Virus record (IMG/VR): IMGVR_UViG_3300029305_006397
Reading direction: 5' to 3' (one strand)
DNA: 64,000 nt
Origin: a virus
The notes under the pieces were generated by a model that was not told the origin of the DNA, ran no database searches, and was given only the letters and a program-made list of their open reading frames with translations. The position numbers were made by a program, and so were the translations under genes. Within the stretch, counting starts at the first letter, position 1. Each line of letters starts with the position of its first letter. Of the stretch, positions 12,120 through 60,177 are shown one piece after another.

Positions 12120-13310
12120 TTATATGTCTCCTTCGTAAGTAAGAATTTTTATTGCTTTATCGATCTGGTTTAAAACAAATTGTAAATCTTCATGGGTGAT
12201 GTTATCTGGTAATGTGAAACGAATGGTTCTTGCCGCATCCTGATCTGAAAGCCCAATGGCCTTAAGTACATGGGAAGGCTTAATGGATTGGGAATTGCAT
12301 GCCGATCCGGCAGAAGCATAAATACCAGCTGATTCCAATAAAAACAAAAGGGATTCGGAATAAACACCATCAGGAAAAGTGACGTTAATATTGTTTGGCA
12401 ACCTTGTATCATATGAAGCACCATTTAATCTGCAGCCGCGCTTTTCCAAAAGATTGATCATATCTTTTTGTTTTTCACCAAGCTTTGATCTTATTAAAGG
12501 GTTGATACATTCGACCGCTTCTGCAAAAGCCATAATGCCAGGAACATTTTCTGTTCCACCACGCATAGAATCCATTTGGGAACCAAACACCAAAGGTTGA
12601 ATCTGGACGCCATCACGAATATAGAGAAAACCTATTCCTTTTGGAGCACCAATTTTATGACCGGATGCCGACATCATATCGATTCCAAGCTTTTGAACAT
12701 CAATTTCGATATGGCCGAATGCCTGGACAGCATCGGTATGAAAAAGTGCATTCGCATTATAAGAATGAATCAATGTGGCAAGAAACCCGATATGTTGGAT
12801 AGTACCAATTTCATTATTAGCGAACTGAATAGATACCAGAGGATCACGGCATTTATACTTTTCCATGGCTTCACGAAGCGCATTTGTATCGACAAATCCA
12901 TATTGATCAACTGGAAGAATTTCAATGTCCGCAATATTATCCCATGCTTTTACACATTCCAGAATGGATTTATGCTCAATAGCCGTCGTAATAATTACAG
13001 GATAGGTATTTCTATGTGGATCAGACAGACATTTATGGATATAACCCTGGATTGCCCAACAATTAGATTCACTGCCACCGGATGTGAAATAGATTTCGTT
13101 AAGCGACCTAGAATTAATATAATCTGAAGTTACCTTTCTGGCCCTTTCCACTTCACCACGAATCCAATGCGCAGGTTTATAATGAGCAGAAGGATTATGC
13201 CATTTGATATTGATATAATGACTGATAATATCTGCAATCATATTCCGTTTTTCAGGATCAGACATTGAAGTGGCGGCTTCATCAAGATAGATTTCGTGCA
13301 TGAGATTCAC
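12120..13310 (-). CDS. cysteine desulfurase (NifS/IscS class, PLP-dependent)
   Basis: PLP-lysine motif SASGHKIGAPKGIGFLY and catalytic-Cys loop SAGSACNS. Confidence 0.85.
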   Translation of the reverse strand: MNLMHEIYLDEAATSMSDPEKRNMIADIISHYINIKWHNPSAHYKPAHWIRGEVERARKVTSDYINSRSLNEIYFTSGGSESNCWAIQGYIHKCLSDPHRNTYPVIITTAIEHKSILECVKAWDNIADIEILPVDQYGFVDTNALREAMEKYKCRDPLVSIQFANNEIGTIQHIGFLATLIHSYNANALFHTDAVQAFGHIEIDVQKLGIDMMSASGHKIGAPKGIGFLYIRDGVQIQPLVFGSQMDSMRGGTENVPGIMAFAEAVECINPLIRSKLGEKQKDMINLLEKRGCRLNGASYDTRLPNNINVTFPDGVYSESLLFLLESAGIYASAGSACNSQSIKPSHVLKAIGLSDQDAARTIRFTLPDNITHEDLQFVLNQIDKAIKILTYEGDI

Positions 13311-18233: not shown

Positions 18234-18673
18234 TAGGCAACCTCCTGTTTGATTTTCGATTCAGAGTTTTTATGGTCTGCTTCAATTTGGGCCTCTTCGA
18301 ATGATGAGAATAATTTGGATTCAGGAACCTCAAGTTTAGCGTCTCCGCAAGAAACTTCATAGCTTATATCAGTATCCGTCTCATCGTCTGAGTCGTTATA
18401 TGCAATAACGGCCTCAACTGTAAAAGGATATTTATCTGCATAATACATCCATTGAGTTTTTGCTAGTTTCCCTGCTTGGCAAAAATATCTGGCAGGGGCA
18501 TCCCCAAAGACATGAAAAACGGCAGCGCATTTGGCAATGCGGTCGCCTTCAAGTCTTACTTCTCCAGCGCCTTTACAGGCGGGGCAAAGCAAACCAGGAA
18601 TCACGAGAGGACGATTTGAACTTTCAACACGATATACCTTGTCACCCACGTTGTATTTGCACTTAATGTTCAT
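18233..18673 (-). CDS. hypothetical protein
   Basis: start moved to MNIKCKY (ATG 18673, GGAGG SD); longer track ORF runs through tRNA-Gln. Confidence 0.6.
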   Translation of the reverse strand: MNIKCKYNVGDKVYRVESSNRPLVIPGLLCPACKGAGEVRLEGDRIAKCAAVFHVFGDAPARYFCQAGKLAKTQWMYYADKYPFTVEAVIAYNDSDDETDTDISYEVSCGDAKLEVPESKLFSSFEEAQIEADHKNSESKIKQEVA

Positions 18674-18774: not shown

Positions 18775-18849
18775 TGGCTGGGGTAGTTGGATTCGAACCA
18801 ACGATGTGGGAGTCAAAGTCCCATGCCTTAGCCGCTTGGCTATACCCCA
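18775..18849 (-). tRNA. tRNA-Gln(TTG)
   Basis: cloverleaf; anticodon loop CUUUGAC; GGTTCGAATCC T-arm; CCA encoded. Confidence 0.85.
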
Positions 18850-19234
18850 ACAGCAGAGAAGTTTAAACCTTGTGTTTTTTTAATGCGGAGCTAACGGGAC
18901 ATTGTTTCAGCTCAGGCATTTCTTCGTAACACATTACTCCTACTTCCAAAGGATGCACTTTAAGACCGTATGTCTTGCTGCTGCGCAGAGGTAGCATTTC
19001 CTCCGCTTGAACACTTTCGCAGTTCCCGGCACTAGACACTTTCGTAGTCTCCAACGCCATCGTTTGTATGCTCAATTTACTTTTACCCAGTAGCGAACTG
19101 GAGAAGGCTGAACCACCTGGCTATAAATACAACAATGGTCTAAGCGTTAGGCAGACGGTCAAGAATCTGCCCCACGGAATCGTACCGTGCCACCTGCGGT
19201 AAATAAGACGCAGGATCGAACCTCGCTTTTAGGA

Positions 19235-19576
19235 TTAATTTTGTATGGGTTTTGCAATTCTAAGTGCAATTGCAATACAGTAAATGCATGCCCATACATA
19301 ATCAATTATGCCTTTCAAGCTCTCAAAAAATGTAGGCTTACGTTCCATCATACGACTAAGCTCGATCAAACGAACACGACGTTCACGGTCGCGAGTTTCC
19401 TCTACAATATGATGGATATCTGTAAGGTCTCGAAGCTGACGATTAAATTTCAAATTAAGCTCTTCAATTTCATTTTGGTGCTCAATTCTGGATTTCTCCA
19501 TTTCATGAGCATGGATTTCGTTGAGACGCCTGGTTTCATTAATTACCAAATTGATATCGCTGAGAGTGAGATTCAT
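19235..19576 (-). CDS. hypothetical coiled-coil protein with C-terminal TM helix
   Basis: AGGAGG SD; sits inside tRNA island. Confidence 0.55.
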   Translation of the reverse strand: MNLTLSDINLVINETRRLNEIHAHEMEKSRIEHQNEIEELNLKFNRQLRDLTDIHHIVEETRDRERRVRLIELSRMMERKPTFFESLKGIIDYVWACIYCIAIALRIAKPIQN

Positions 19577-19620
19577 AGAAGCCTCCTATTGTTGTTCGTC
19601 GATATCTTTGAAAATAAAGA

Positions 19621-19697
19621 TGGTACTCCGGGAGGGACTTGAACCCCCGACTACAGACTTAGAAGGACTGTGCTCTTTCCAACTGAGCTACCGGAGC
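19621..19697 (-). tRNA. tRNA-Arg(TCT)
   Basis: 77 nt cloverleaf; anticodon loop CUUCUAA; CCA encoded. Confidence 0.85.
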
Positions 19698-19701
19698 ATA
19701 T

Positions 19702-19777
19702 TGGCAGGGAAGAAGAGATTCGAACTCTTATCTACATCGGTTTTGGAGACCGGAGTTTTGCATTAAACTACTTCCCT
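19702..19777 (-). tRNA. tRNA-Trp(CCA)
   Basis: 76 nt cloverleaf; anticodon loop CUCCAAA; CCA encoded. Confidence 0.8.
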
Positions 19778-19948
19778 ATTTATTATTATTGAGCCATAGG
19801 ACTTTCACCTATGGGAGCAAGGGTTAGGTTTCGTGTTTGCAACCACTTTCTAACGGTCTATTTCTAATTACTAATCTTGCCGACCAAGCATCTACAATTT
19901 TACCTTGCTTTTTCATATTTCGTACTTTTAAGAGATTTTCTTTTTGCT

Positions 19949-20036
19949 CGGCATCAACAGGACTTGAACCTGAACCCTCCGGCCAGCACTATCCAGCCAG
20001 CATGCTCTCCACCTACACCAGACACCTAATCCCTGC
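19949..20036 (-). other. tRNA-like element with aberrant anticodon arm
   Basis: acceptor GGTGTCT/TGATGCC, D-arm GTGT..GCAT, T-arm CAGGTTCAAGTCCTG; central hairpin has a 6- or 8-nt loop, no assignable anticodon. Confidence 0.35.
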
Positions 20037-20127
20037 CACACAAACCATCGGCTGTACCTTCCGTTATAGGCTTGTTTGTACGTTGTGGCATACTCCATAT
20101 GGCTTTGTACTCACCACTCAAAAATAA

Positions 20128-20391
20128 TCACGTTTGCTTTTTGCGAAGCGCCTGAACCTTGCGATTAAAAGCATGAATCTCGCTTTTTGTAAGGTTGGGC
20201 TTGATTTCTACGATTGAAAGATTCCATGAATAAAGGATGTCTTTGCTAGTGCCAGATAACTTGTTTGCATTGACTACAAAACGAGCCAATTGATCAAGCG
20301 TTTCAAACCTACGAACAAAAGCTCCGCGACAATGACGATTAAAAGATTTAAACTTCAATCCTGACCTTGCAAATGCAACTTCATAACGCAT
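20128..20391 (-). CDS. small basic protein inside tRNA island
   Basis: 87 aa, K/R rich; AAAGAGGT SD 5 nt before ATG. Confidence 0.4.
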   Translation of the reverse strand: MRYEVAFARSGLKFKSFNRHCRGAFVRRFETLDQLARFVVNANKLSGTSKDILYSWNLSIVEIKPNLTKSEIHAFNRKVQALRKKQT

Positions 20392-20672
20392 AAAGTACCT
20401 CTTTCATAACCGGGTTACGATCTACACGGTAGACGGCCTGTCCCCTACCCCTTTAGCCTTGGACTGTTTGGCTTCCCTCGTTGGTTGATGGTCGCGTCCA
20501 ACTCTTTCAACCTCTTTCACTGCCCCTCGAACGTATTACCAGTGCCAACACCCACTTAGCGTTAAGCAGAATTACATCGACGTTGTTGGCTGCGCGAATG
20601 ACTGCGCGTACATAAGCTTCATTAAATGGCCGTCTGCTGCGGCATCAACTTAAGAAAAGAAAGAAAGGAGTT

Positions 20673-20743
20673 TGCTTCGAGACGGAATCGAACCGCCGAC
20701 AAGAGCCATTCCAGCTTTTACTCTTCCCCTGAGTTACCGAAGC
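20673..20743 (-). tRNA. atypical tRNA, Phe(GAA)-like with G33
   Basis: good acceptor, D and T arms; anticodon loop UGGAAUG (G at position 33), A-C mismatch in stem; no CCA. Confidence 0.45.
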
Positions 20744-20746
20744 ATG

Positions 20747-20822
20747 TGGAGCTGGCGAAGGGACTTGAACCCGCAACCTGCTGATTACAAATCAGCTGCT
20801 CTGCCAATTGAGCTACGCCAGC
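20747..20822 (-). tRNA. tRNA-Thr(TGT)
   Basis: 76 nt cloverleaf; anticodon loop UUUGUAA; CCA encoded. Confidence 0.85.
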
Positions 20823-20831
20823 CCGATATAT

Positions 20832-20954
20832 TTACTGGGTTTCCAGTAAACGAATACGACGTTTGAGTTTATTGATAATGTTAACATTGACAACGGGATC
20901 GCGCATCTGCAGGATGTGCATGCGAATGGAGAGAGATTCGATAGAGTTTTTCAT
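20832..20954 (-). CDS. possible 40-aa protein between tRNAs
   Basis: own translation MKNSIESLSIRMHILQMRDP...; GAAAGAGGTAC SD as for 20128..20391. Confidence 0.3.
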   Translation of the reverse strand: MKNSIESLSIRMHILQMRDPVVNVNIINKLKRRIRLLETQ

Positions 20955-20984
20955 GGATTTGTACCTCTTTCATTGAATTTTAGA

Positions 20985-21061
20985 TGGAGCACCAGACGGG
21001 ACTCGAACCCGCAAACCTCCGGCTTGGAAGGCCAGCATTCTAACCATTGAACTACTGGTGC
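20985..21061 (-). tRNA. tRNA-Gly(TCC)
   Basis: 77 nt cloverleaf; anticodon loop CUUCCAA; CCA encoded. Confidence 0.85.
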
Positions 21062-21316
21062 ATATACCCTAATCTGTTATCGTACAGATTGGTAGAAACG
21101 CCGGATTTGCACCGGGACTCGCGAGTGTCTTTGGGCGCAGCCAGGGATCGAACCCGGAAATCAAGACTTGGCTTCCTGCATTTTGCCTCTTAAATTACTG
21201 AGCCATAAAACTCCCGGTGGGTTCTCAGGCCCACATTGCCCGTTTACCGAAGCAGTGACGGCAGTCCTTCAGGTGATAAGCTTAAAGTCACCCTTGCGAA
21301 TTTGTACGACAGGAGT

Positions 21317-21402
21317 TGGTGAATACAATTGGATTCGAACCAATGCTCGACGACTGAGCCAAAGGCATGGGCCGTCCGTGCTAACCGCTACACCATATAT
21401 TC
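21317..21402 (-). tRNA. atypical 86-nt tRNA-like gene, expanded anticodon arm, isotype unassigned
   Basis: acceptor GAATATA/TGTATTC, D-arm GTGTAGCGGTTAGCAC, T-arm ATTGGTTCGAATCCAAT, ACCA end; about 13 extra nt in the anticodon arm. Confidence 0.45.
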
Positions 21403-21550
21403 ATGCATCCGACTAAGCAGTAGTCGGCACTGTGAAACACGCCGCGTGACACCTCGTCTGCGTCTGCGTCTGCGATTTCAATCAGTGATATCGCCACTGA
21501 TCCTCCCCTTGTCATCGGGAAAACTATCTTGACCAAGCGATATTTGGGAC

Positions 21551-21627
21551 TGGTGGGGGCCACAGGACTCGAACCTGTGACCGATCGGTTATGAGCCGAC
21601 TGCTCTGACCAACTGCGCTAGACCCCC
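21551..21627 (-). tRNA. tRNA-Met or Ile2 (CAT)
   Basis: 77 nt cloverleaf; anticodon loop CUCAUAA; CCA encoded. Confidence 0.85.
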
Positions 21628-21878
21628 ATATGTAATGCCCCTGGTTGTATTAAATACATATGCATATGGATAGCTACGTCCCGCGAAGGAGTATTCGCGT
21701 GTATGCCTGACTTAAATCACGGACTCCAATTGTATTACTATGTGACGCATACTTTCGTTTTTATCCGCTATCTGGACGGGGCAGGTTAAGCGATAACCTA
21801 TGCCTTTCGACAACCCAGCCTCTAATAAGAGGCTGACGCTCATGGCCTAATGTCCTGTTTCAACTCGCCATGACGAGC

Positions 21879-21942
21879 AATCACCTGCAAGAATCGAACC
21901 TGCCTGGAAGTCAAGCTTCCTTTACTGCCGCCCAGAAGTGAT
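21879..21942 (-). other. truncated tRNA-like element lacking a D-arm
   Basis: acceptor ATCACTT/AGGTGAT, T-arm GCAGGTTCGATTCTTGC, hairpin GGAAG-CUUGA-CUUCC. Confidence 0.3.
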
Positions 21943-22006
21943 TAAGATGGATTGTTTGACTTTAATTTGATAAGCGGAGGCCAAACAACCAAATTTCTCT
22001 CACGAT

Positions 22007-22092
<86 letters not shown>

Positions 22093-22170
22093 AGATTGGT
22101 GGGCCTTAACGTCGGCCCAAACGACAGATGGGTTTATGCGCTGCGTAACCTCTTTTGCTCTTAACCGCGA

Positions 22171-22253
22171 TGGTGGGGATGGTGGGACTTGAACCCACAC
22201 GGTCTAGCCGTCGCATTTTGAGTGCGATGCGTCTGCCATTCCGCCACAACCCC
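22171..22253 (-). tRNA. tRNA-Leu(CAA)
   Basis: 83 nt type II tRNA; anticodon loop CUCAAAA; CCA encoded. Confidence 0.8.
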
Positions 22254-22366
22254 GCCTAGTATGGCATGCCGTTCGGCTTACGACGGCCATAACGCCGGAT
22301 TTAGGAAATCACCCAAGAAAGGAGGTGTACATATGAAACCGTATCTCACCCGGAATCAGATGTAAG

Positions 22367-22442
22367 TGGTGAAAGTGGCGGGATTCGAACCCGCGACTCA
22401 CAGATTAAAAGTCTGTTACTCTACCGACTGAGTTACACTTCC
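22367..22442 (-). tRNA. tRNA-Lys(TTT)
   Basis: 76 nt cloverleaf; anticodon loop CUUUUAA; CCA encoded. Confidence 0.85.
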
Positions 22443-22450
22443 AAGTAATT

Positions 22451-22469
22451 TTTGCACATAATGTTTATT
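22451..22469 (-). promoter_or_regulatory. conserved phage motif copy (AATAAACATTATGTGCAAA on minus strand)
   Basis: 9 nt upstream of the tRNA-Lys 5' end; one of 10 copies. Confidence 0.5.
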
Positions 22470-22509
22470 GTTTATCAGATCAATCCGAATTATCGTTTTC
22501 ATCTTTATT

Positions 22510-22528
22510 TTTGCATATAATGTTTATA
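22510..22528 (-). promoter_or_regulatory. conserved phage motif copy
   Basis: TATAAACATTATATGCAAA on minus strand, upstream of tRNA island. Confidence 0.45.
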
Positions 22529-22619
22529 AGCAATAAAAGAATGATTTACTGCCTTTTCAAATGATCGCCATTTGAATGCCTTCGGATTGATTGATAATAG
22601 ACAGTGATTCATTTTATCG

Positions 22620-22638
22620 TTTGCACTTAATGTTTATT
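22620..22638 (-). promoter_or_regulatory. conserved phage motif copy
   Basis: AATAAACATTAAGTGCAAA on minus strand, upstream of tRNA island. Confidence 0.45.
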
Positions 22639-22729
22639 AAAACATCTTAAATCGCCAACGACTGTAATAATACTACCACAAGATTCATAGCTTGTCAACC
22701 CCTTTTTCAAACTTTTTTGAAAAAAATTT

Positions 22730-23905
22730 TCAAGCTTCTGCTTTAAAATTATAGATGGGTTTAAAACGATCTACGATATCTACGGTTGGGCCAATGCAAT
22801 TAATAATTTCCTGATAATCCTTGTAAACAAAAGGAGCTTCATCCAAGGTTGATTCATTAATGCATGTGGAATATATGCCATTCATAGTTTCGGCATATTC
22901 TTCTACGGTAAATATCTTCTTTGCCTGTGCGCGAGAATACAGGCGACCAGCTCCATGAGGAGCAGAACAATTCCATTCGGTATTGCCCTTTCCTCTGCAG
23001 ATCAAAAGACCATCACGCATATTAAGAGGAATTACAAGAAACTGACCTTGCTGCGCAGAGATTGCGCCTTTGCGCAAAATCATTTCTTTCACATTGATAT
23101 AATTATGTACACTATCAATGCAATAATCGATTTCACCACCCATAGCAGATACGATTGTATGCAACATTATCCATCTATTCTGTTCAGCAAATTCCTGTAG
23201 AATTGCAACGTCATGAAGATAATCATCCATGTCCTGTCCGGTAAGATAACAAAGATCGGGATCAATTGCGATATGATGTTCAGACAGCCATTGCTGGCGC
23301 ATAACAGGTTCAATAAACTGCAGTTGCTCCATGCGCAAATTATAGTTGTATTTCTTTATGCGATTTACGGCGAGGTTCTGGTAGTATTGAGCCACTTTCA
23401 GGCCGATATTGCGACTGCCTGAATGAACAGCGATATATCCATTTTCATACGCTTCGATGAAATGGTTCCCACCTCCAAGAGTTCCAAGGGTACACTTTGC
23501 CCTTTCCTGGGTCGCTTTATCCAATTTGTCCCAGCACCGCAATTCTTCGAAATCTCGTTCCCATACCTTCTCAGTCGAATGTACATCCATACCAAACGGA
23601 ATACTAGATCGGATAGCGGCGTCCAATTCATCAAGGCGAGAATCAAAATCAATATTGGTTTGTACAAGTGATACACCACAACCGATATCTACGCCAACCA
23701 AATTCGGGCATACCTTATCCGTGATATGCATAGTAGTACCGATTACACAGCCAGCTCCGGCATGGGCATCCGGCATGATTCGAATATGTGCGTCCTTACC
23801 CAAAGGAGAATCCGCCATCTTTTTAATTTGATCGATAGCTTGATCCTCAATTGTCTTAGCATAAATGACGACATCATCACCATGGGTAGACTTATATATT
23901 TTCAC
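22730..23905 (-). CDS. rtcB: RtcB RNA 3'-phosphate/2',3'-cyclic phosphate ligase
   Basis: PDAHAGAG, GGGNHFIE, HSGSRNIG, HNY and HGAGR motifs; GTG start with AAGGTGA SD. Confidence 0.9.
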   Translation of the reverse strand: MKIYKSTHGDDVVIYAKTIEDQAIDQIKKMADSPLGKDAHIRIMPDAHAGAGCVIGTTMHITDKVCPNLVGVDIGCGVSLVQTNIDFDSRLDELDAAIRSSIPFGMDVHSTEKVWERDFEELRCWDKLDKATQERAKCTLGTLGGGNHFIEAYENGYIAVHSGSRNIGLKVAQYYQNLAVNRIKKYNYNLRMEQLQFIEPVMRQQWLSEHHIAIDPDLCYLTGQDMDDYLHDVAILQEFAEQNRWIMLHTIVSAMGGEIDYCIDSVHNYINVKEMILRKGAISAQQGQFLVIPLNMRDGLLICRGKGNTEWNCSAPHGAGRLYSRAQAKKIFTVEEYAETMNGIYSTCINESTLDEAPFVYKDYQEIINCIGPTVDIVDRFKPIYNFKAEA

Positions 23906-27449: not shown

Positions 27450-28253
27450 TCAAATATATTCAAGACCAAGTTCCACGCTATTGAAAATGCTTTCTACTTC
27501 GGTATCCATGATGCCAATATACTTTAGTGTAACTTGCGGACTGGAATGACCAAACGCCTGTTGAAGTATAACCAGTGCTTTAGACTTATCTTCTGCGTTG
27601 TGCCATCTCCAATAGCCCCACGTTTTTCTCAGTGAATGCGACCCGATATTTTGTTTGATTCCAGCTTCCGCCGCTGTATCTTTTATAACTCTCCAGAGAT
27701 ATTTAGATTCAATCGGATCGTTTCCCTTTTGAGAAGGAAAAAGGTAATCGTCTAAATTATCTATTGGGTATTCTGAAATGAAATTCATAATTGCAGCCTG
27801 TACAGTTTGATTGAAAAACAGCTTTACAAATTTCTTTTGCTTCTTTTGCTTTTGCGGTTGCAAGGCATAGAATTGTTTAAAAGCAAGGTTTCCGGCATTA
27901 TTTCGTTCGAGAAAGAACGACCAGCGCAAAGTGCGAAGATCGGATGCCCGAACACCAACATTGATTCCGATCAAAAACAGTAGCTTGTTTCGCGAAGCAG
28001 TTTTTTTGCGACATACGCCAGAAGCTGACGTAATATGTTTATCAAATATGGCGATCATCGCCTGAATTTCTTCCTGGGTGCGAAATGCGTACACTTCTGA
28101 AGATTCGCCTGCAATTTTATTATTGCGGCTTTTATTGATCGAACCATCCAGATTGTACTTGACTTTCTTTTTCTGTTTACCGCCCTGCAAAACGCTAAGA
28201 GGAACGATGTTTGAAGTGTCCCGTTCAATCGGGAAAGCGACCACATTATTCAT
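27450..28253 (-). CDS. tyrosine recombinase / integrase
   Basis: R (GVRASDL), HSLRKT, GHSS..TLKYI catalytic-Tyr region; start placed at ATG 28253 overlapping upstream stop. Confidence 0.85.
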   Translation of the reverse strand: MNNVVAFPIERDTSNIVPLSVLQGGKQKKKVKYNLDGSINKSRNNKIAGESSEVYAFRTQEEIQAMIAIFDKHITSASGVCRKKTASRNKLLFLIGINVGVRASDLRTLRWSFFLERNNAGNLAFKQFYALQPQKQKKQKKFVKLFFNQTVQAAIMNFISEYPIDNLDDYLFPSQKGNDPIESKYLWRVIKDTAAEAGIKQNIGSHSLRKTWGYWRWHNAEDKSKALVILQQAFGHSSPQVTLKYIGIMDTEVESIFNSVELGLEYI

Positions 28254-28971
28254 GTACGATTTCAATCCTTTCTTTAATTTTTGATGTGTCAATGACCAAT
28301 TCATCTTCATCTCGGCCATTGAAATAAGCGAGGATTTCAGATTTATCGACGGTTGCCCTTTGAATATAACCTTTTTCATCGGCTATATCAAAGCGGTGGG
28401 CAAACCACTTTGCAGTTTCAAGACTCCAAGTCCACGAAAGACCATTGGGGTTACGACCCACAGAGACGCCACGATATACCGTAAGATGCTGAGGCAACCT
28501 TTCGTAATAAGCAAGTTCATCAGCATCCATGAGATACTTTTTATTTGCCTGACGGAACCACGATGCAGCTGTACGCAAGGAAACATTTGCATCTTGATTT
28601 GGATTTTCTACGTTTACCCATACAGTTGCCAACATCCGATCCCGTTCTTCCTTTGAAAGATAGGTGCGGATATGTTTTAGAAAAGTAAGCTGATAAGCTT
28701 TTCGGATCATCATGACGACGCCAAATGCATTAGTTTGCTTATCAATTACCGGAAGCATTGCTTCACGAGCAAGATTAAGCTCATTTGAATCTAACAGATT
28801 CAGCATTTTCCATTCGCCATTAATCATCGCTGGATGCGTTGCAGTTTCAAAAACAGGGTGATAGAGAATAAAAGGCAAATCGCTTTGATGGATATTCATA
28901 TATAAGAATATCCTTGCCATTCTCTTGACTTCATTCAAATCAGTTTGCCTTTTCATGCTCAATTCTCCCAT
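28246..28971 (-). CDS. possible ADP-ribosyltransferase-like protein (R-S-E pattern)
   Basis: C-terminal TVYRGV...GLSWTWS...EDELVID fits the R / S-x-T / E-x-E arrangement; weak. Confidence 0.3.
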   Translation of the reverse strand: MGELSMKRQTDLNEVKRMARIFLYMNIHQSDLPFILYHPVFETATHPAMINGEWKMLNLLDSNELNLAREAMLPVIDKQTNAFGVVMMIRKAYQLTFLKHIRTYLSKEERDRMLATVWVNVENPNQDANVSLRTAASWFRQANKKYLMDADELAYYERLPQHLTVYRGVSVGRNPNGLSWTWSLETAKWFAHRFDIADEKGYIQRATVDKSEILAYFNGRDEDELVIDTSKIKERIEIVHE

Positions 28972-49958: not shown

Positions 49959-50020
49959 AACCCAGACCAGCCCATGTGGGCGTGGTTTCGTCGCAATTTT
50001 CAGCGACTCGTCAGTGGGTT
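49959..50020 (-). ncRNA. hammerhead ribozyme, type I (HH-1)
   Basis: AACCCA-CUGACGA-GUCGC-UGAAAAUU-GCGAC-GAAA-CCA(C)GCCC-ACAU-GGGCUGGUC/UGGGUU; predicted cleavage between 49965 and 49964; overlaps stop of 50011..50208. Confidence 0.85.
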
Positions 50021-50989: not shown

Positions 50990-51044
50990 CACCCGACGCC
51001 CGGCAGGGCGTTTCGTCTTAATTTTCAAAGACTCTTCAGGGGCG
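50990..51044 (-). ncRNA. hammerhead ribozyme, type I (HH-6)
   Basis: CGCCC-CUGAAGA-GUCUU-UGAAAAUU-AAGAC-GAAA-CGCCC-UGCC-GGGCGUC/GGGUG; predicted cleavage between 50995 and 50994. Confidence 0.9.
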
Positions 51045-51047
51045 TTA

Positions 51048-51368
51048 TTATCTCAAGTTGTCGTTATATGCAATATCCCTGTTTTTGATTGCAATTTCGA
51101 TTCGCTTTTTGCTAACGTCGCCGCCGAAAATGTGACGGGCGTATTCGCGCAAAAACTCATAGAGATATTTTGCGGTTGTATTGGAGTAACACCAATTCCG
51201 ACCCAAAGTCAACGCCGCCGCGCCCTGCGCGTCATAATCAACGATTGCAATAACGCTGTCATAAGACTGGAAAATAACAGCATTATTGGAGTGAATGATA
51301 AACTGGTTTGCAACGGGGCGACCACTTCGGGGGGATACCATGTTCCTAACACTTGCATATTTCATCAT
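51048..51368 (-). CDS. hypothetical protein (first gene of the ribozyme-punctuated operon)
   Basis: GGAAGGTG SD; conserved motif copy 27 nt upstream. Confidence 0.6.
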   Translation of the reverse strand: MMKYASVRNMVSPRSGRPVANQFIIHSNNAVIFQSYDSVIAIVDYDAQGAAALTLGRNWCYSNTTAKYLYEFLREYARHIFGGDVSKKRIEIAIKNRDIAYNDNLR

Positions 51369-54589: not shown

Positions 54590-54648
54590 TCTAAAATTCT
54601 CAGACTAAGTAAGGATGAATGAAATGGGTAAATAAAGAAGGTGTTTGT

Positions 54649-57534
54649 ATGCCTCTGGATAAGCAAATTCAAATTATCTCGACTGATACTGCGGGATTCT
54701 ACAGCAACCATGAGGCAAGGTTGCATTTGAAAAATCATAAACTTCGAAGCGAAAGAAAAATACTTAAAAAAGGCGGAGTCGTTAAAAGAGCAAATGGAGA
54801 CAAACGGATCGTTATTGGTTTAGATGAAATTGAAAATAAGCTTGCCGTATTTGGTATTTACTCTACTGACATAGAAGACATCATAAACGAACGCTTTAAT
54901 TTTGACGACTATACCTTAGAGGATATAGGCGAAATTAAGCATTTGATTTCCGATTACAACTTGAAAAAGAAGCTAATTGAAATCAAGAACGCTGCAATCA
55001 GCGAAAGCAAAGAGCAGCTTTTGAAGCTCTTGGCGAATAAAGTCCAGGAGAACGTAAGCTCAAATGGAAGGCATCATACGAGGTACTTGAGAGAGAATAG
55101 CGTTGTAAACAGTAATATCATTTCGGTATTTGATTCGTCCTTTACGAGAATGATCGGAGCAAAGGAAAATGAATTATGCGAAGATTTTATGGTGATTCAG
55201 GTATTTTACTTTGATGTATTGAAAGATATTCTGTATCATGGGTATACATACAAGGGCGAGAAATATATTTATTTTACTTCATCTGCCGGACAGATCAGGA
55301 CAAAAAAAGCGGTTTTTGTAAAAGAAAAAATCTGGAACGAGCATGAGCGTACAATTATGTGTGGATTAACGCTTGACGAGATAAATCGCAAGGGAGGTAA
55401 CAATCCCAATAAGCATCTGGCTTATATGGCTTTGAGCAATTCAGCCACTGATTTGTGGCCTGAGTTCGATATTGATAAAGCCATTGTAATCGATGATTTT
55501 GAAACCAATGTATTTGGAACCTACGATCTCGTGGATGATGCGGACTATACTATTACCAGGGTTTCAGATTTTGTTCCTATATCTCATACAGATGGCGCTG
55601 GTATGATACTCCCCTGTGCCTTTGGAAAGACCCAGAAAAATAAAATGGTTCGATTACCGTGGATTAAAGGATTGCTTGGCGTTTTTGATTTTAGGAAGTT
55701 TATAATTGATCAAGGAGCTTCGCCAGTAATTCGAGATATTTACGGAAAAGAACACAATTTGATTTCCGAAGATATCCAGGTAGTTTTCACCAAATCTCAG
55801 CATAAAATGTGGAAATACTATAACTCCTGGAACGAATATAAAGCGGCTTATAAGAAATATGGTTGTACTGCCGGATATACCAATGAAGAAGAGTTGAATA
55901 TTCCTAATGCGTCCATCAACTATCAAATGCTTCAAACACTGACGGATATTACTCCGGAAGAGATTTTAAAAATTGCAAATAAATCTATTGGCTGTTTGGA
56001 AAATATGACGAGCAGTATAGATAACATTCGAGCAGCATTTGGTGGAGCAAATTATAATCAGGATAAGAGTAGTTTGAACAAAGCATTAGATTTATACCCT
56101 GATCTATTAAACGATGATTGGATTAAGAGAACCCTCCGGGCAATTCGCGATAGCTTGATCAAGGATTATAAAGCTGGAAAATTGAGAGTGCGAGGCAAAT
56201 ACACATTCTTACTCCCTGATTTTTATGCTGCATGCCAATATTGGTTCCTTGGGATCGAGGAACCGGAAGGGCTTTTGCAAGATGGAGAGGTATTTTGTTG
56301 GTTATTTCCTGAAAGCGAAAAATTAGATTGCTTGCGAAGTCCTCATTTATATCGCGAACATCCTATTCGCAGGAATGTCGCATGGATAGGTTATAAAGAA
56401 AGACAAGCCAAGATCAGAGAATGGTTTGGTACAAACGCAGTTTATACGAGCTGCCATGATTTGATCAGCAAGATTTTGCAGTTTGATGTTGACGGAGATA
56501 AGAGTCTGGTGGTGGCAGATAAAACTATTATTGACGTTGCAGAGCGTAATATGCAAGGAATTGTTCCTTTGTATTATAACATGCGTAAAGCTTCTCCAGT
56601 GCAATTGAATAACGAAACGATCTATAACGGGTTGAACGCAGCATTTGTTGGCGGTAATATTGGAATATACAGCAATAATATTTCAAAGATTTGGAATAGT
56701 GAAGTTTTCATAAGCGGCAGCAATGAAGAACGTCGGGAAGCATTGGATATTATTAAGTTGCTTTGTATGGAAAATAATTTCGTTATCGATTATGCCAAAA
56801 CTCTGTATAAACCAGAACGCCCTAAGCACATTCACGAAAGAATCCTGGCCTTTACAAGAAATAAGCTTCCTCATTTTTTCGTTTATGCTAAAGACAAGCT
56901 GGACGATCAAGTGGAAAAACGCAATGGCAGTTTCGTAAATCAGTTGGATGATATAATACCTGTCCCCAGGTTCCATTTCAAAAAACTTGGTTTAGAAAAA
57001 GTTGAACATAGGTTTTTAATGCATGATTCAAATTGCACTGCAAGAGTAGCTTTTACAGATTCGGGTAAAATCATTTCAGAAGAGACAGACCCTTTAATTT
57101 TGGCGTACCATGCATTAAATAAAAAATATTTTTTGGACTTGGGAGAAGTATTACAGGTGAACTATTGCAATACTGAGTTGATATCAATATACGCTAAAAA
57201 TGGTGCTCTTGCCAAGAAGCAGCAAATGATCGAAGAAACGAAAAGCATTCTATCTGAATTTGGATATAATCAAAATCAAATTGTAGATATTTTAGTCGAT
57301 TATGTGTATGGGAAAAATAGGTCGAATGCAAAAGCACTGCTATGGCTTTGCTATGGCGATTCGATTTATAAGAATATGCTACAATATTTAATTCCGGATT
57401 TTAAGACGATACAGTGCGTAGATTGCGATGCATTATTTTCTGTTTCTGCTAAAAATCAATATGCATGCCGTTGTCCAGAATGTGCTAAAAAGCAGAAAAA
57501 GGCCGAAAGGCAATTAAAAAAGATGCTGTCTTAA
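54649..57534 (+). CDS. YonO-like single-subunit RNA polymerase (two-barrel, RdRP-related family)
   Basis: FTSSAGQIRTKKAVF, LRSPHLYREHP and metal-binding QFDVDGDKSLVV motifs in the order seen in YonO and cellular RdRP-type polymerases; start placed at ATG 54649 (track start 54619). Confidence 0.65.
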   Translation: MPLDKQIQIISTDTAGFYSNHEARLHLKNHKLRSERKILKKGGVVKRANGDKRIVIGLDEIENKLAVFGIYSTDIEDIINERFNFDDYTLEDIGEIKHLISDYNLKKKLIEIKNAAISESKEQLLKLLANKVQENVSSNGRHHTRYLRENSVVNSNIISVFDSSFTRMIGAKENELCEDFMVIQVFYFDVLKDILYHGYTYKGEKYIYFTSSAGQIRTKKAVFVKEKIWNEHERTIMCGLTLDEINRKGGNNPNKHLAYMALSNSATDLWPEFDIDKAIVIDDFETNVFGTYDLVDDADYTITRVSDFVPISHTDGAGMILPCAFGKTQKNKMVRLPWIKGLLGVFDFRKFIIDQGASPVIRDIYGKEHNLISEDIQVVFTKSQHKMWKYYNSWNEYKAAYKKYGCTAGYTNEEELNIPNASINYQMLQTLTDITPEEILKIANKSIGCLENMTSSIDNIRAAFGGANYNQDKSSLNKALDLYPDLLNDDWIKRTLRAIRDSLIKDYKAGKLRVRGKYTFLLPDFYAACQYWFLGIEEPEGLLQDGEVFCWLFPESEKLDCLRSPHLYREHPIRRNVAWIGYKERQAKIREWFGTNAVYTSCHDLISKILQFDVDGDKSLVVADKTIIDVAERNMQGIVPLYYNMRKASPVQLNNETIYNGLNAAFVGGNIGIYSNNISKIWNSEVFISGSNEERREALDIIKLLCMENNFVIDYAKTLYKPERPKHIHERILAFTRNKLPHFFVYAKDKLDDQVEKRNGSFVNQLDDIIPVPRFHFKKLGLEKVEHRFLMHDSNCTARVAFTDSGKIISEETDPLILAYHALNKKYFLDLGEVLQVNYCNTELISIYAKNGALAKKQQMIEETKSILSEFGYNQNQIVDILVDYVYGKNRSNAKALLWLCYGDSIYKNMLQYLIPDFKTIQCVDCDALFSVSAKNQYACRCPECAKKQKKAERQLKKMLS

Positions 57535-58056: not shown

Positions 58057-58222
58057 TCCTATATATCCAGCGGAAACGCTGTTTATATATAAACGGGTCG
58101 GGACTTTGAGATAGGTTCCGGCCTGACTTCTTTCATTCATATTTACACCTTTCTCTAGCTGCGCCACGGTTGTTAAAAGCAGCCGTGGTGTTATTTTGAA
58201 GGTAACTGTGATGAAAAGTTTG

Positions 58223-58300
58223 ATGGAAGTAGTTTAAGGCAAAACAGCTGAAGGTACAAAACAAAAACGGAAGTTGAGGGTGCAAATCCCTCCTTCCATC
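58223..58300 (+). other. tRNA-like element without anticodon arm (T-loop UGCAAAU)
   Basis: acceptor ATGGAAG/CTTCCAT, D-like hairpin GTTT-AAGGC-AAAC, A-rich linker, T-arm GAGGG-TGCAAAT-CCCTC. Confidence 0.35.
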
Positions 58301-58305
58301 CGTAT

Positions 58306-58383
58306 TGCGGAGTGGAGAAGCGGACTATCTCGCCAGCCTCATAAGCTGGAGATCGCTGGTTCGAATCCAGCCTCTCGCAACCA
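58306..58383 (+). tRNA. tRNA-Met(CAT), irregular acceptor stem
   Basis: D, anticodon (CUCAUAA) and T arms align with bacterial tRNA-fMet layout; ACCA end; one extra nt or mismatch in acceptor. Confidence 0.7.
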
Positions 58384-58386
58384 CAT

Positions 58387-58461
58387 GTGGAGTTCGTATA
58401 ATGGTTAGTACCTGAGATTTTCAATCTCAAAACAGGGGTTCAACTCCCCTACTCCTCACCA
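58387..58461 (+). tRNA. tRNA-Glu(TTC)
   Basis: 75 nt cloverleaf; anticodon loop UUUUCAA; CCA encoded. Confidence 0.8.
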
Positions 58462-58630
58462 GTTAGTTTTTTGCTGTAATGATCTTCGGACTTATGGCTT
58501 AAATCGCATGCTTCGGATTCCTTCGGGGCCGAGGCTTTATTTTGAAAAATTGTTCGCTAGTCAGTATGCGACTAATAAAATACTGATCAGAAACTACCAT
58601 CTGATTTCTTTTAAATCAGGTGGTTTATAT

Positions 58631-58707
58631 CAGGGTGTATATCAGTTTGGTAGATGGCCGCATTTGGGATGCGGAGGCCGCTGGTTCGAATCCAGTCACC
58701 TTGACCA
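58631..58707 (+). tRNA. tRNA-Pro(TGG)
   Basis: 77 nt cloverleaf; C1-G72; anticodon loop UUUGGGA; CCA encoded. Confidence 0.85.
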
Positions 58708-58748
58708 TGATCGTACTCAAGAATGCTACGGCGCTTGGGTCTATTTAT

Positions 58749-58776
58749 AGGGTGGCGATGCCACCCTTTTATTTTT
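58749..58776 (+). terminator. intrinsic terminator inside tRNA island
   Basis: AGGGTGGC-GAT-GCCACCCT followed by TTTTATTTTT. Confidence 0.65.
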
Positions 58777-58780
58777 ACAT

Positions 58781-58870
58781 GCTGATATGGCCGAGTCTGG
58801 CTTAAGGCGGTGGTCTTGAAAACCATTGGAGGTAACACTCACGGAGGTTCGAATCCTTCTATCAGCGCCA
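58781..58870 (+). tRNA. tRNA-Ser(TGA)
   Basis: 90 nt type II; anticodon loop CUUGAAA; CCA encoded. Confidence 0.85.
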
Positions 58871-59023
58871 GTATTAGCTCTCCTGCATAAAAATGTGCTA
58901 TTGATGACAGAAACAGGAGATAAGAGTCCCGCAAGTAGACACGCGGTTCAGTGCTCGTACAGGTGTTTTGTTGAGCAAGCAGTCTATTAAGAATAAACAC
59001 TGACAGCAGGAAAGACTGCATAT

Positions 59024-59115
59024 GGAGAGGTGGCTGAGTGGCTGAAAGCGGCACCCTGCTAAGATGTTTGCCCTGGTGACAGGGCACGAGAGTTCGAATC
59101 TCTCCCTCTTCGCCA
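59024..59115 (+). tRNA. tRNA-Ser(GCT)
   Basis: 92 nt type II; anticodon loop CUGCUAA; long variable arm; CCA encoded. Confidence 0.8.
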
Positions 59116-59286
59116 AACAAATGTGGTTCCGGTAGAGCCTGACGCATCAGTACCGACCTTGATGGAAAGGGTATCCCGTAGCTAAGACGAGTCCATAGGC
59201 GGGGATTTCTGCCACGTTGATTTAGCTCATCTGCCAAGTGCAGAAGGAGTTCCTGGATGTGTTACACAACTAGCGCATCCTGATTT

Positions 59287-59361
59287 GGTTCTATAGTTTA
59301 GGGGCTAGAATGCCAGCCTGTCACGCTGGAGACACGGGTTCGATTCCCGTTAGAGCCGCCA
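59287..59361 (+). tRNA. tRNA-Asp(GTC)
   Basis: 75 nt cloverleaf; anticodon loop CUGUCAC; CCA encoded. Confidence 0.85.
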
Positions 59362-59420
59362 ATTTGCCTCACACGCCTCTTTGTCGTATGACAAATGCGG
59401 ACTAAGTGAGGTTTTTTCAT

Positions 59421-59496
59421 GGGGTTATAGCTCAGTTGGAAGAGCGCGTGCTTTGCAAGCATGAGGTCAAGGGTTCGAGACCCTTTAGCTCCACCA
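59421..59496 (+). tRNA. tRNA-Ala(TGC)
   Basis: 76 nt cloverleaf; G3-U70; anticodon loop UUUGCAA; CCA encoded. Confidence 0.85.
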
Positions 59497-59498
59497 AT

Positions 59499-59570
59499 CG
59501 CCGGGTGGTGTAAATGTTAGCACCGCAGACTATGATTCTGCGAATAAAGGTTTAAATCCTTTTCCGGCGA
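59499..59570 (+). tRNA. atypical tRNA with anticodon ATG (formally His), no CCA
   Basis: acceptor CGCCGGG/TCCGGCG, D-arm GTGT..GCAC, anticodon arm GCAGA-CUAUGAU-UCUGC, T-arm AAAGG-TTTAAAT-CCTTT. Confidence 0.5.
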
Positions 59571-59903
59571 TTATGTTATCTATTTCCCAACATACTGTCA
59601 TGCGTGGGTGGAATAAGAAGAGACGGGCGTTTTCGGTCGGCATAAACCGAAGTTTGGCATTTGAGGTCAAATGAGTTTGATGAATGCAATCCCGTGCTGC
59701 TATGCGGTATTTGCAGGAGAACAACAGGGGTTTGCGTATAACCACAAGGCAGCTAGGTACAATCCGAAAGAAAAACGGTTATAAAGGGCGTCCCGCCACC
59801 TATATCCCAAGTGTGGAACGATAAAGCAGGTGTTTCGCTGCCTATAAATGCGAAATTTAATCAGCTCCGTGTTGGATATTTTGACATGCGGAGCATTTTA
59901 TAT

Positions 59904-59979
59904 GGCATCATAGCTCAGTCGGTAGAGCAGCTGGCTGTTAACCAGCAGGTCAAGAGTTCGAGCCTCTTCGGTGCCTCCA
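59904..59979 (+). tRNA. tRNA-Asn(GTT)
   Basis: 76 nt cloverleaf; anticodon loop CUGUUAA; CCA encoded. Confidence 0.85.
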
Positions 59980-60100
59980 CGGGTAGATAAGATAACAAAA
60001 CGCGCCACTACCCCAAGGCAGATACATACGCATTCGAGAAGCGCAATGGCTGCGATCAAATTGGCAGATGTGTAGGCGGCAGACTTAACTGTCTTTATTT

Positions 60101-60177
60101 GCTGTCATAGCTACAATTGGCAGAGCGACGGATTTGTAATCCGTAGGTTCAGAGTTCGAGTCTCTGTGGCAGCTCCA
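60101..60177 (+). tRNA. tRNA-Thr(TGT), second copy
   Basis: 77 nt cloverleaf; anticodon loop UUUGUAA; CCA encoded. Confidence 0.85.

Follow-up and report, generated by a model that had tools for sequence, protein, structure and literature searches.

The transfer RNA (tRNA) genes of phages are usually read only as helpers of codon usage or as protection from enzymes that cut tRNA, and unusual calls among them are dismissed as pseudogenes. Here, we analysed a 64,000-nucleotide (nt) stretch of viral DNA, IMG/VR record IMGVR_UViG_3300029305_006397 (hereafter referred to as the window), in which two RNA-gene islands, one on the minus strand (18775-22442) and one on the plus strand (58222-60177), hold aberrant tRNA-like elements. 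These look-alikes are not one thing. They comprise a probable decoder, which is a tRNA-His with anticodon AUG (hereafter His-AUG), a group of likely by-products of island turnover, and four elements that keep the coaxial acceptor/T-arm "top half" of a tRNA and have lost a usable anticodon loop. The four are element b, which heads the plus-strand island, a mini element next to a pistol self-cleaving ribozyme, and two cloverleaves, Trp(CCA)-like and Phe(GAA)-like, that carry a G at position 33 (Table 1).

Among the closest described systems are species 1 and species 2 (band C/D) of phage T4, small stable RNAs that share transcripts with phage tRNAs and mature through the tRNA-processing machinery. 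In the tRNA-like/microRNA transcripts of murine gammaherpesvirus 68 (MHV68) and in the mascRNA of MALAT1, cleavage by RNase P and RNase Z at a tRNA-like module sets the end of a partner RNA, and the module receives CCA and is not aminoacylated. The bacterial Y RNA YrlA, linked to rtcB in some bacteria, has a tRNA-like D/T/acceptor module with a long stem replacing the anticodon arm. The t-elements of plant mitochondria are cut by RNase P and RNase Z, have their ends at those sites and gain non-encoded C/A residues (PMC1920247). Theta ribozymes, which are hepatitis delta virus (HDV)-like, adjoin gut-phage tRNAs, most of which encode no CCA, in phages that show an enrichment of RNA ligase genes (PMC10879173). 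Finally, phage tRNAs are reported to restore infection in the face of retrons and other tRNA-targeting defences (PMC11555353) and to escape such defences via anticodon-loop mutations (PMC10264068).

The elements of the window share with the t-elements non-decoding, non-canonical cloverleaves, with a T arm (GGTTCRANYCC) and acceptor kept inside longer transcripts. They differ in that they belong to a phage, lie in arrays of tRNAs and noncoding RNAs and not beside mRNAs, abut a ribozyme in one case, and have processing sites that are predicted. As in MHV68 and MALAT1, a tRNA-like module adjoins another functional RNA and would be cleaved there, but those systems are eukaryotic, with RNA polymerase III or nuclear processing, whereas the partner here is a pistol ribozyme with a conserved spacer RNA. 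Theta ribozymes offer a looser precedent, as there too a self-cleaving ribozyme follows a phage tRNA-type gene immediately on its 3′ side; here, however, it is a pistol, which is not predicted to trim the upstream element, and its partner is the 64-nt mini element and not a suppressor tRNA. The T4 RNAs likewise are small RNAs among phage tRNAs, a setting in which we propose stability and processing for the elements of the window, yet they show no sequence relationship to these, are longer and do not obviously derive from a specific tRNA. The defence-evading tRNAs also are phage tRNA-type genes with deviant anticodon loops; they are reported as otherwise functional (PMC10264068), in contrast to the elements of the window, whose loops are non-canonical at U33 or grossly enlarged and whose CCA is missing.

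A preliminary description of the sequence had raised a likeness to Y RNA as one possibility, and the D/T/acceptor module with a long stem replacing the anticodon arm is indeed common to YrlA and the elements. The YrlA model (RF02553) gave a best match of 21.9 bits against a gathering score of 69 (E = 0.28), spanning two ordinary tRNAs at 19641-19756, and the RNA ends here would lie at the acceptor side and not on a long stem. A Pfam scan of 32 open reading frames (ORFs), which are part of those in the window, found no Ro60/TROVE protein, CCA-adding enzyme, archease or splicing endonuclease. The Y-RNA-like reading was thus rejected on both model and topology.

With default settings, ARAGORN called 22 genes in the window, and the Rfam tRNA model (RF00005, gathering score 29 bits) gave 23 matches at or above its gathering score. 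Eighteen genes are ordinary, the number counted previously; all of them encode CCA and have U33 and R37 in an anticodon loop of 7 nt. Among the aberrant elements, a canonical 7-nt loop with U33 and a purine at 37, on a 5-bp stem, was found in His-AUG only (CUAUGAU). Four aberrant elements scored above the Rfam gathering score (Phe-like, b, His-AUG and an 86-nt element; Table 1), as did the Trp-like copy of a related locus, L013 (36.8 bits); the window copy of the Trp-like element, the mini element and a weak candidate at 19949-20036 fell below it. The relaxed ARAGORN setting -ps80 recovered these last two, together with obvious false calls, and the intron mode returned only implausible calls. 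We then used a detector of the acceptor and T-arm half, which requires a 5-base-pair (bp) T stem, a loop U[UG][CU]RANN and a 7-bp acceptor stem, 58-95 nt apart. It gave 25 matches in the window, 22 of them inside the two islands, whereas 100 dinucleotide shuffles gave 1.37 on average and never more than 4. Six aberrant elements passed it, namely the Phe-like, Trp-like, 86-nt and mini elements, b and His-AUG. Collectively, these data show that the set of tRNA look-alikes is real and well beyond chance. The earlier view of aberrant elements beside canonical tRNAs was upheld overall, with two corrections that concern 21133-21157 and 19949-20036 (see below).

A feature absent from the preliminary description separates the two groups: the ordinary tRNAs of this phage encode CCA and most look-alikes do not. 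In the window, CCA was encoded by 18/18 canonical tRNAs and by 1/6 aberrant elements (Fisher p ~1.4e-4, calculated by hand). It is missing from the Phe-like and Trp-like elements, mini, b and His-AUG, as well as from the weak candidate at 19949; the 86-nt element alone among the aberrant ones encodes it. Across relatives, CCA was absent in 6/7 odd-loop calls as compared with at most 17/102 canonical calls, some of these 17 being register errors.

Both islands are polycistronic RNA-gene arrays that together hold the 18 tRNAs, a pistol ribozyme, a RAGATH-36 RNA, a drum RNA, conserved spacers and the tRNA-derived elements. Relatives of the minus-strand island were found by protein look-ups (RtcB RNA ligase 95% identical in L013, 90% in L014 and L034, 80% in L012, the locus of which is truncated). 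Those of the plus-strand island were ordered by the identity of a neighbouring protein: L038 (90%), L039 and L040 (80%), L041 (76%), L162 (74%), L163 (72%), L016-18 (69%), L027 (67%), and L025 and L026 (65%). Such a comparison had been recommended in the preliminary description, and it showed that most aberrant elements are kept in sister lineages, the 86-nt element being absent. Alignments depicted the islands as mosaics of swappable tRNA cassettes, with canonical tRNAs 62-100% identical between lineages. For instance, the Met(CAU) slot at 21551-21627(-) is occupied by Ile(UAU) in L013 (6424-6500) and by a different Met in L014 (2838-2914), a GIY-YIG homing-endonuclease gene lies between tRNA-Pro and tRNA-Ser in L040 (3078-3701), and the drum RNA (59675-59782) occurs in the window lineage only. 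Four non-tRNA spacers are conserved, at 58871-59023(+), 21628-21808(-), 59980-60100(+) and 21205-21316(-). Across lineages with flanking proteins at 80-90% identity, the conserved spacers are 91-98% identical, several of them 96-98%, which makes them more conserved than many tRNAs, and one stretch of ~100 nt is identical in three lineages.

Such high turnover, with its tRNA swaps, the GIY-YIG insertion and the window-only drum RNA, raises the possibility that all aberrant elements are neutral decaying tRNA pseudogenes, left by duplication, recombination and cassette replacement. We consider this unlikely as an account of the whole set. No frameshifted or collapsed acceptor or T arm was seen in any relative for any element, and the two elements described next argue against it as well.

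In the mini element, which has no encoded CCA, the acceptor stem is 8 bp long, the central stem GGAAG/CUUCC closes a loop of 5-6 nt, and the T arm reads GCAGG-UUCGAUU-CUUGC. Described earlier as D-armless (21879-21942), the element is indeed there, with a 3-bp rudiment of the D arm. Between the window, L013 and L014, 7-8 columns vary, all of them in the D-like hairpin loop, its flank or the central loop, and no change falls in the ~46 nt that make up the acceptor stem, T arm and central stem. The central loop reads CUUGA, UUUAAU or CUUAUU, that is, it varies in both length and sequence. Substitutions thus avoid all helices, which speaks against a neutral pseudogene, and such a pattern would arise if what counts lies in the helices and not in the "anticodon". 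In all three lineages, the discriminator base of mini directly abuts an intact pistol ribozyme, which scores the same 61.6 bits in L013 and L014. By comparison with the env25 pistol, we take cleavage to occur ~10 nt before the 3′ end of this ribozyme and not at the junction with mini. Processing of the 3′ end of mini in the manner of theta ribozymes was rejected, since the ribozyme is a pistol and not HDV-like and its predicted cleavage is not at the junction.

The acceptor stem of element b comprises 8 bp, its D arm is GUUU/AAAC and its T arm GAGGG-UGCAAAU-CCCUC; the central stem is degenerate, and no CCA is encoded. The preliminary description had placed at 58223-58300 an element with no anticodon arm and a T loop UGCAAAU, and both the Rfam match and the absence of a proper anticodon arm bore this out. 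Identity is 97% for b in L038 and L040, as against 80-88% for the flank upstream of it and, in L038, 70% for the neighbouring tRNA-Met; the sole stem difference is a compensatory change from A-U to C-G. Further members of the family stand at the head of the array in L016-18, L041, L162 and L163, and diverged copies were found in L025, where it lies between tRNA-Asn and tRNA-Met, and in L027, which keeps its copy though ARAGORN calls no tRNA in the locus. The family thus spans at least seven SPbeta-like lineages and is retained down to ~65% identity of the neighbouring protein, and in most lineages other than L027 it lies at the array head or directly upstream of tRNA-Met. In an alignment of six sequences, the D and T stems were 100% paired and the central stem 80% paired, and two T-stem pairs had changed on both sides. 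Sliding the partners lowered pairing to 38-63%, and the covariation score of 0.31, compared to 0.20 in shuffles, was reached by 1/500 shuffles. Flanks at 70-88% around an element at 97%, compensatory changes, presence in at least seven lineages and the absence of helix-breaking changes in the T and D stems all speak against neutral decay of b. On this comparative evidence, b appears to be a conserved and previously undescribed family of non-decoding tRNA-derived RNAs at SPbeta-like tRNA arrays, and we regard this as the most solid new result. DNA-pattern scans for the family in IMG/VR and GTDB genomes returned only the known L016-18 lineage and chance matches, and no host emerged from them.

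As to its origin, a covariance model of the b family ranked phage tRNA-Trp next (46 bits), above tRNA-His genes (25-31 bits), so that the family is probably derived from tRNA-Trp. A derivation from tRNA-His had first been suggested by the 8-bp acceptor stem, by a tRNA-His in the same slot of L015 and by a 5′ end identical to that of the L107 phage tRNA-His. This suggestion was weakened by the covariance model and by the fact that the 8-bp acceptor stem holds in the window lineage only.

The two remaining top-half elements carry a normal-sized loop with G33. The Trp-like element is a 72-nt cloverleaf with the loop AGCCAAG, a U4.C69 mismatch and no CCA; its 3′ part corresponds to what had been described as an orphan T arm (21133-21157). 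It is 97-99% identical in L013 and L014, with changes (a G.U pair to G-C in the T stem) that leave pairing intact. Similarity to the canonical tRNA-Trp (19702-19777) extends over the D arm and part of the leader, and the D arm also resembles that of b; the element is probably a diverged duplicate of tRNA-Trp, a resemblance that also fits neutral decay. The Phe-like element, reported previously as a Phe(GAA)-like gene with G33 at 20673-20743 and found here by default ARAGORN and Rfam alike, has the loop UGGAAUG (G33, U37), an A28.C42 mismatch, a discriminator A73 and no CCA. L014 has the same loop, and the mismatch is repaired there to G28-C42 without further decay, which is not what neutral decay would lead one to expect. 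In both G33 elements, the acceptor/T-arm half is simply left intact.

PrrC-type nucleases cut the bond just 3′ of position 33, and colicin E5-type enzymes recognise the G34-U35 dinucleotide. G33 in two independent elements and A34 in one tRNA could then mark counter-defence RNAs, that is, nuclease-resistant variants of, or uncleavable decoys for, tRNAs hit by host anticodon nucleases, with the neighbouring RtcB resealing cuts. The presence of RtcB immediately upstream of the minus-strand island, which the preliminary description had pointed out and Pfam confirmed, fits this idea, as does the recent literature on phage tRNAs against tRNA-targeting defences (PMC11555353, PMC10264068). Yet the loops of b and mini resemble no anticodon loop, and that of mini differs even among close relatives. 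A34 also occurs in a tRNA-Leu(AAG) of L162, and a fit to codon usage is a simpler reason for it. Moreover, relatives of RtcB in IMG/VR (62-67% identity) lack the island and are mostly without adjacent tRNAs. On balance, a counter-defence role seems to us improbable.

RNase P, RNase Z and the CCA-adding enzyme all recognise a tRNA by its acceptor/T-arm half, and in Bacillus subtilis CCA-less tRNA precursors are substrates of RNase Z. Because selection preserves precisely this half in b and mini, we favour, as a tentative reading with slightly less than an even chance, that the four top-half elements are kept not as decoders but as handles for the host RNase P, RNase Z and CCA-adding enzyme, which punctuate a polycistronic transcript of tRNAs, ribozymes and other noncoding RNAs. 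The idea of substrates for RNase P or the CCA-adding enzyme was one of those raised in the preliminary description, and the conserved acceptor/T-arm half and the lack of CCA in five of the six elements support it. Starting from the structures, the pattern of conservation, the CCA dichotomy and the adjacencies, which were observed directly, we infer the following enzymatic steps. RNase P would cut the 5′ end of each top-half element. RNase Z, not hindered by a CCA anti-determinant, would cut just past the discriminator, and the CCA-adding enzyme could then cap the product. These cuts would separate neighbouring RNAs and set their ends, for example, the exact 5′ end of the pistol ribozyme. Self-cleavage of the pistol near its own 3′ end would give the conserved RNA downstream, which extends up to tRNA-Met, a 5′-OH end, and RNase P acting at tRNA-Met would set the 3′ end of that RNA. 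The top-half elements themselves would be released as stable small RNAs.

Several observations weigh against this processing-handle reading. Element b lies 5 nt upstream of a normal tRNA, which already supplies an RNase P site, so that punctuation would be partly redundant there, and punctuation does not explain the conserved UAC motif in the loop of b (see below). The arrangement of mini and pistol is not a general module, as 10 other pistol ribozymes (2 in the window and 8 in IMG/VR) had no upstream tRNA-like element. The conserved spacers showed no signal of thermodynamic stability on folding (minimum free energy z ~0). The flanks of the Trp-like element are conserved like the element itself (91-97%), and the whole block around the Phe-like element is 96-99% identical; with the flanks of the 19949 candidate included, this equal conservation (91-99%) means that conservation is no proof of selection on these elements. 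Lastly, canonical tRNAs without CCA exist in relatives (Pro in L038 and L040, His(GUG) in L015), and the absence of CCA is therefore not specific to non-decoders.

The central loop of b is A-rich, measures 17-22 nt and contains GUACAAAA. Across the family the loop is 15-22 nt long and otherwise unalignable, yet always holds U-UAC-A/U-A (GUACAA in the window). A further possibility was that the elements are still aminoacylated adaptors, either unusual decoders, with G33 in the Phe-like element and b as the missing tRNA-Val(UAC), perhaps trimmed in its loop, or carriers for non-ribosomal reactions. Indeed, default ARAGORN found no canonical tRNA-Val in any fetched array of this phage group, most other U34 four-box tRNAs being present. 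The UAC of b can be read as anticodon-like, all members carry it in the U-UAC-A context, GUA and GUU are the main Val codons, and the L162 copy of b was called tRNA-Val(UAC) by ARAGORN at a relaxed threshold. The Phe-like element, for its part, keeps GAA and A73, its D loop and T arm are normal, and no other tRNA-Phe occurs in the window. However, the decoding site has no room for loops of 15-22 nt, and nearly all decoders carry U33. Neither the discriminator nor the acceptor of b is Val-like, and minimum-free-energy folds place its UAC in structural contexts that vary from member to member. Signatures of a group I intron or of a bulge-helix-bulge were absent. An intron in b was rejected, since no intron family matched in the islands and, by inspection, removal of a single segment restored no arm with a 5-bp stem and a 7-nt loop; the same inspection led us to reject an intron in the 86-nt element, the inserts tested in the two being 8-15 nt. 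A role as decoder or aminoacyl carrier is plausible for His-AUG, conceivable for the Phe-like element and unlikely for b, and as an explanation of the elements in general it is very unlikely.

Besides serving as a handle, b may have an additional sequence-specific role tied to the conserved U-UAC-A/U-A of its enlarged loop. The motif can also be read as codon-like, ACA/ACU plus a purine, which is complementary to the loop UUUGUAA of the phage tRNA-Thr(UGU). A bolder idea, which we hold to be rather doubtful, is that b represents a new class of phage tRNA-derived regulatory RNA whose loop motif acts in trans, by pairing, as a T-box specifier does, with the UUUGUAA loop of the phage's own duplicated tRNA-Thr(UGU), or by capturing valyl-tRNA synthetase (ValRS) or a tRNA-modifying or tRNA-cleaving enzyme, and that the islands, three classes of self-cleaving ribozymes and RtcB might form a phage system for cutting and rejoining RNA. 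The latter part comes from the fact that ribozymes leave 2′,3′-cyclic phosphate and 5′-OH ends, which are substrates of RtcB.

The tRNA with anticodon AUG, noted earlier at 59499-59570, stood up to scrutiny in both its Rfam score and its folding (Table 1). It forms a good cloverleaf with the loop CUAUGAU, a T loop UUUAAAU and U-1/A73, and has no CCA. L038 keeps it with the same anticodon and a canonical T loop UUCAAAU, and in L040 it is replaced by unrelated non-tRNA sequence. CAU makes up 80% of the His codons of the window. A34 tRNAs recur in the phage group, as His(AUG) in the window and L038 and as Leu(AAG) in L162 (3435-3519), CUU being the most used Leu codon in the window, and the bona fide tRNA-His(GUG) of L015 has no CCA either. 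The dominance of CAU, the retention in L038, the A34 tRNA in L162 and the CCA-less His(GUG) in L015 together indicate that His-AUG is probably a working decoder specialised for CAU with an unusual anticodon.

For a last group of elements, decay is the better description, and here the suggestion of decaying pseudogenes in the preliminary description stood, whereas it did not for b and mini. In the 86-nt element, acceptor stem, D arm and T arm are clean, and the anticodon arm contains, as described before, extra nucleotides; this arm comprises ~28 nt instead of the usual 17 and is elongated and irregular (or has a 6-nt loop). The element lies within a ~237-nt insertion specific to the window and is absent from L013, L014 and every other fetched locus. 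Its leader contains GCAGACGCAGACGCAGACG, which resembles the D-arm region of tRNA-Leu genes (repeat family D7). Its place in a lineage-specific insertion beside tRNA-Leu-like debris fits neutral decay, and the 86-nt element is probably a pseudogene, either recent debris or a recent arrival. The T-loop variant reported to recur near 21090-21110 proved to be a true orphan tRNA 3′ half. Its 5′ partner AGAAACG is present in neither island, and a split tRNA was accordingly ruled out. The shorter related segment reported near 22290-22310 is there as well, as a 12-mer remnant of the same T-arm/acceptor sequence. The existence of the orphan half and of this remnant also fits neutral decay. The candidate at 19949-20036 has a T-arm-like hairpin CAGG-UUCAAGU-CCUG, a 6-bp G.U-rich acceptor stem and no CCA. 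The 8-bp central stem and the 6-nt loop described for it were found, but not a tRNA likeness beyond chance: there was no Rfam match at E<=1, default ARAGORN and the detector missed it, and its fold z was +0.45. It does no better than chance, as neutral decay would allow. The 86-nt element, the orphan 3′ half and the 12-mer appear to be by-products of rapid cassette turnover, and the 19949-20036 candidate probably likewise.

Table 1. Positions of the tRNA-like elements and adjoining features in the window
Feature	Position	Strand	Remarks
Element b, tRNA-derived head of plus-strand island	58222..58301	+	Rfam tRNA 39.9 bits
Mini tRNA-like element, ~64 nt	21879..21944	-	Detector; ARAGORN at -ps80 only
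Pistol self-cleaving ribozyme	21809..21878	-	RF02679 61.6 bits, gathering score 34.5
Trp(CCA)-like 72-nt cloverleaf	21133..21204	-	ARAGORN tRNA-Trp(CCA); passes detector
Phe(GAA)-like cloverleaf	20672..20744	-	ARAGORN default; Rfam 39.3 bits
tRNA-His, anticodon AUG	59498..59571	+	Rfam 51.6 bits; fold z -4.1
86-nt tRNA-like element	21317..21402	-	ARAGORN "tRNA-???"; Rfam 46.9 bits; encodes CCA
Leader of 86-nt element, 148 nt	21403..21550	-	Window-specific; contains GCAGACGCAGACGCAGACG
Orphan tRNA 3′ half	21090..21115	-	CCGG-UGCAAAU-CCGG, CGUUUCU, A-CCA; conserved in L013, L014
AAATCCGGCGTT, 12-mer remnant of the 21090-21115 T-arm/acceptor sequence	22291..22302	-	In block conserved in L012-L014
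Weak tRNA-like candidate	19949..20036	-	ARAGORN at -ps80 only
Sigma-70-type promoter driving minus-strand island	22670..22698	-	TTGACA, 17-nt spacer, TGnTAGTAT; conserved in L012-L014
RtcB RNA ligase gene	22730..23905	-	Pfam PF01139, E = 3.8e-63; immediately upstream of minus-strand island

The genes around the islands gave an indication of the phage itself. A distant-mode blastn search found no close relative of this large phage genome among GenBank phages, only generic tRNA matches, and near-identical contigs were found in ENA, JGI (sample 3300018475) and Logan metagenome assemblies. The window encodes a YonO-type single-subunit, two-barrel RNA polymerase at 54619-57534(+) (Pfam RdRP), whose nearest cultured relatives are SPbeta, phi3T and phages of Clostridium, Enterocloster and Thomasclavelia; these relatives infect Bacillota. 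In relatives of the window, YonG, YonD and terminase genes lie downstream of the same 445-amino-acid (aa) phosphoesterase. The polymerase, this gene order and the cultured relatives of the polymerase indicate that the window belongs to a SPbeta-like phage, related to Bacillus phage SPbeta, and that the host very probably is a member of the Bacillota. When the 445-aa neighbour protein was used to scan metagenomes, the relatives found had 0-2 tRNAs each.

The minus-strand island begins at a strong sigma-70-type promoter directly after the RtcB gene, and the plus-strand island has the polymerase region on one side and the structural genes on the other. Three copies of the motif AUAAACAUUAWRUGCAAA separate tRNA-Lys from the RtcB-proximal promoter (22439-22637(-)), and a further copy stands at 18644-18673(-), before an ORF at the far end of the minus-strand island; these repeats may be operator sites. 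IMG/VR searches with two small ORFs inside this island found nothing. Upstream of the plus-strand island, at 58060-58200(+), we noticed a block made of CAGCGGAAACGCUG-UUUAUAUAUAAA, a variable hairpin, CUUCUUUCAUUCAUAUUUACACCUUUCU and a hairpin with a U run. The same block is conserved in L015 (3915-4020), L017 (4190-4330), L041 (2480-2600), L025 (3610-3730) and L027 (850-910), and may be a promoter of the phage polymerase or a terminator cluster. A related sequence, CAUAUGUACACCUCCUUUCUU, lies at 22325-22345(-). A scan for terminator-like sites counted 8, as compared with 2.2 expected.

The small RNAs recognised by Rfam in the window are three pistol ribozymes, one twister-P5 ribozyme, the RAGATH-36 RNA and the drum RNA. 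Two T-arm-like hairpins, CGAGG-UUCGAUC-CUGCG and CACGG-UACGAUU-CCGUG, lie at 19170-19233(-), at or just upstream of the 5′ end of RAGATH-36, and are conserved in L014. Near two of the pistol ribozymes, intergenic hammerhead-like cores were seen, CUGAAGAG...CGAAAC at 50990-51064(-) and CUGACGAG...CGAAAC at 49959-50020(-); both are below threshold in Rfam (RAGATH-1-hammerhead, 25.8 bits, E = 0.11; Hammerhead_1, 24 bits, E = 0.0047). Elsewhere, the window carries a class-V aminotransferase/cysteine-desulfurase-like gene at 12120-13310(-), possibly linked to tRNA thiolation, and a tyrosine integrase gene at 27450-28379(-).

A non-decoding tRNA-derived element thus appears to be kept across many SPbeta-like phages of the gut and rumen, even in a locus without a called tRNA. 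The co-occurrence of ribozymes, RtcB-type ligases and tRNAs in gut phages gains from these loci a testable set of substrates, and annotators should neither count such loci as ordinary tRNAs nor discard them. If the elements do act as punctuation or as small RNAs, the "tRNA islands" of phages would be better seen as RNA-processing hubs, in which tRNAs stand together with ribozymes and conserved RNAs.

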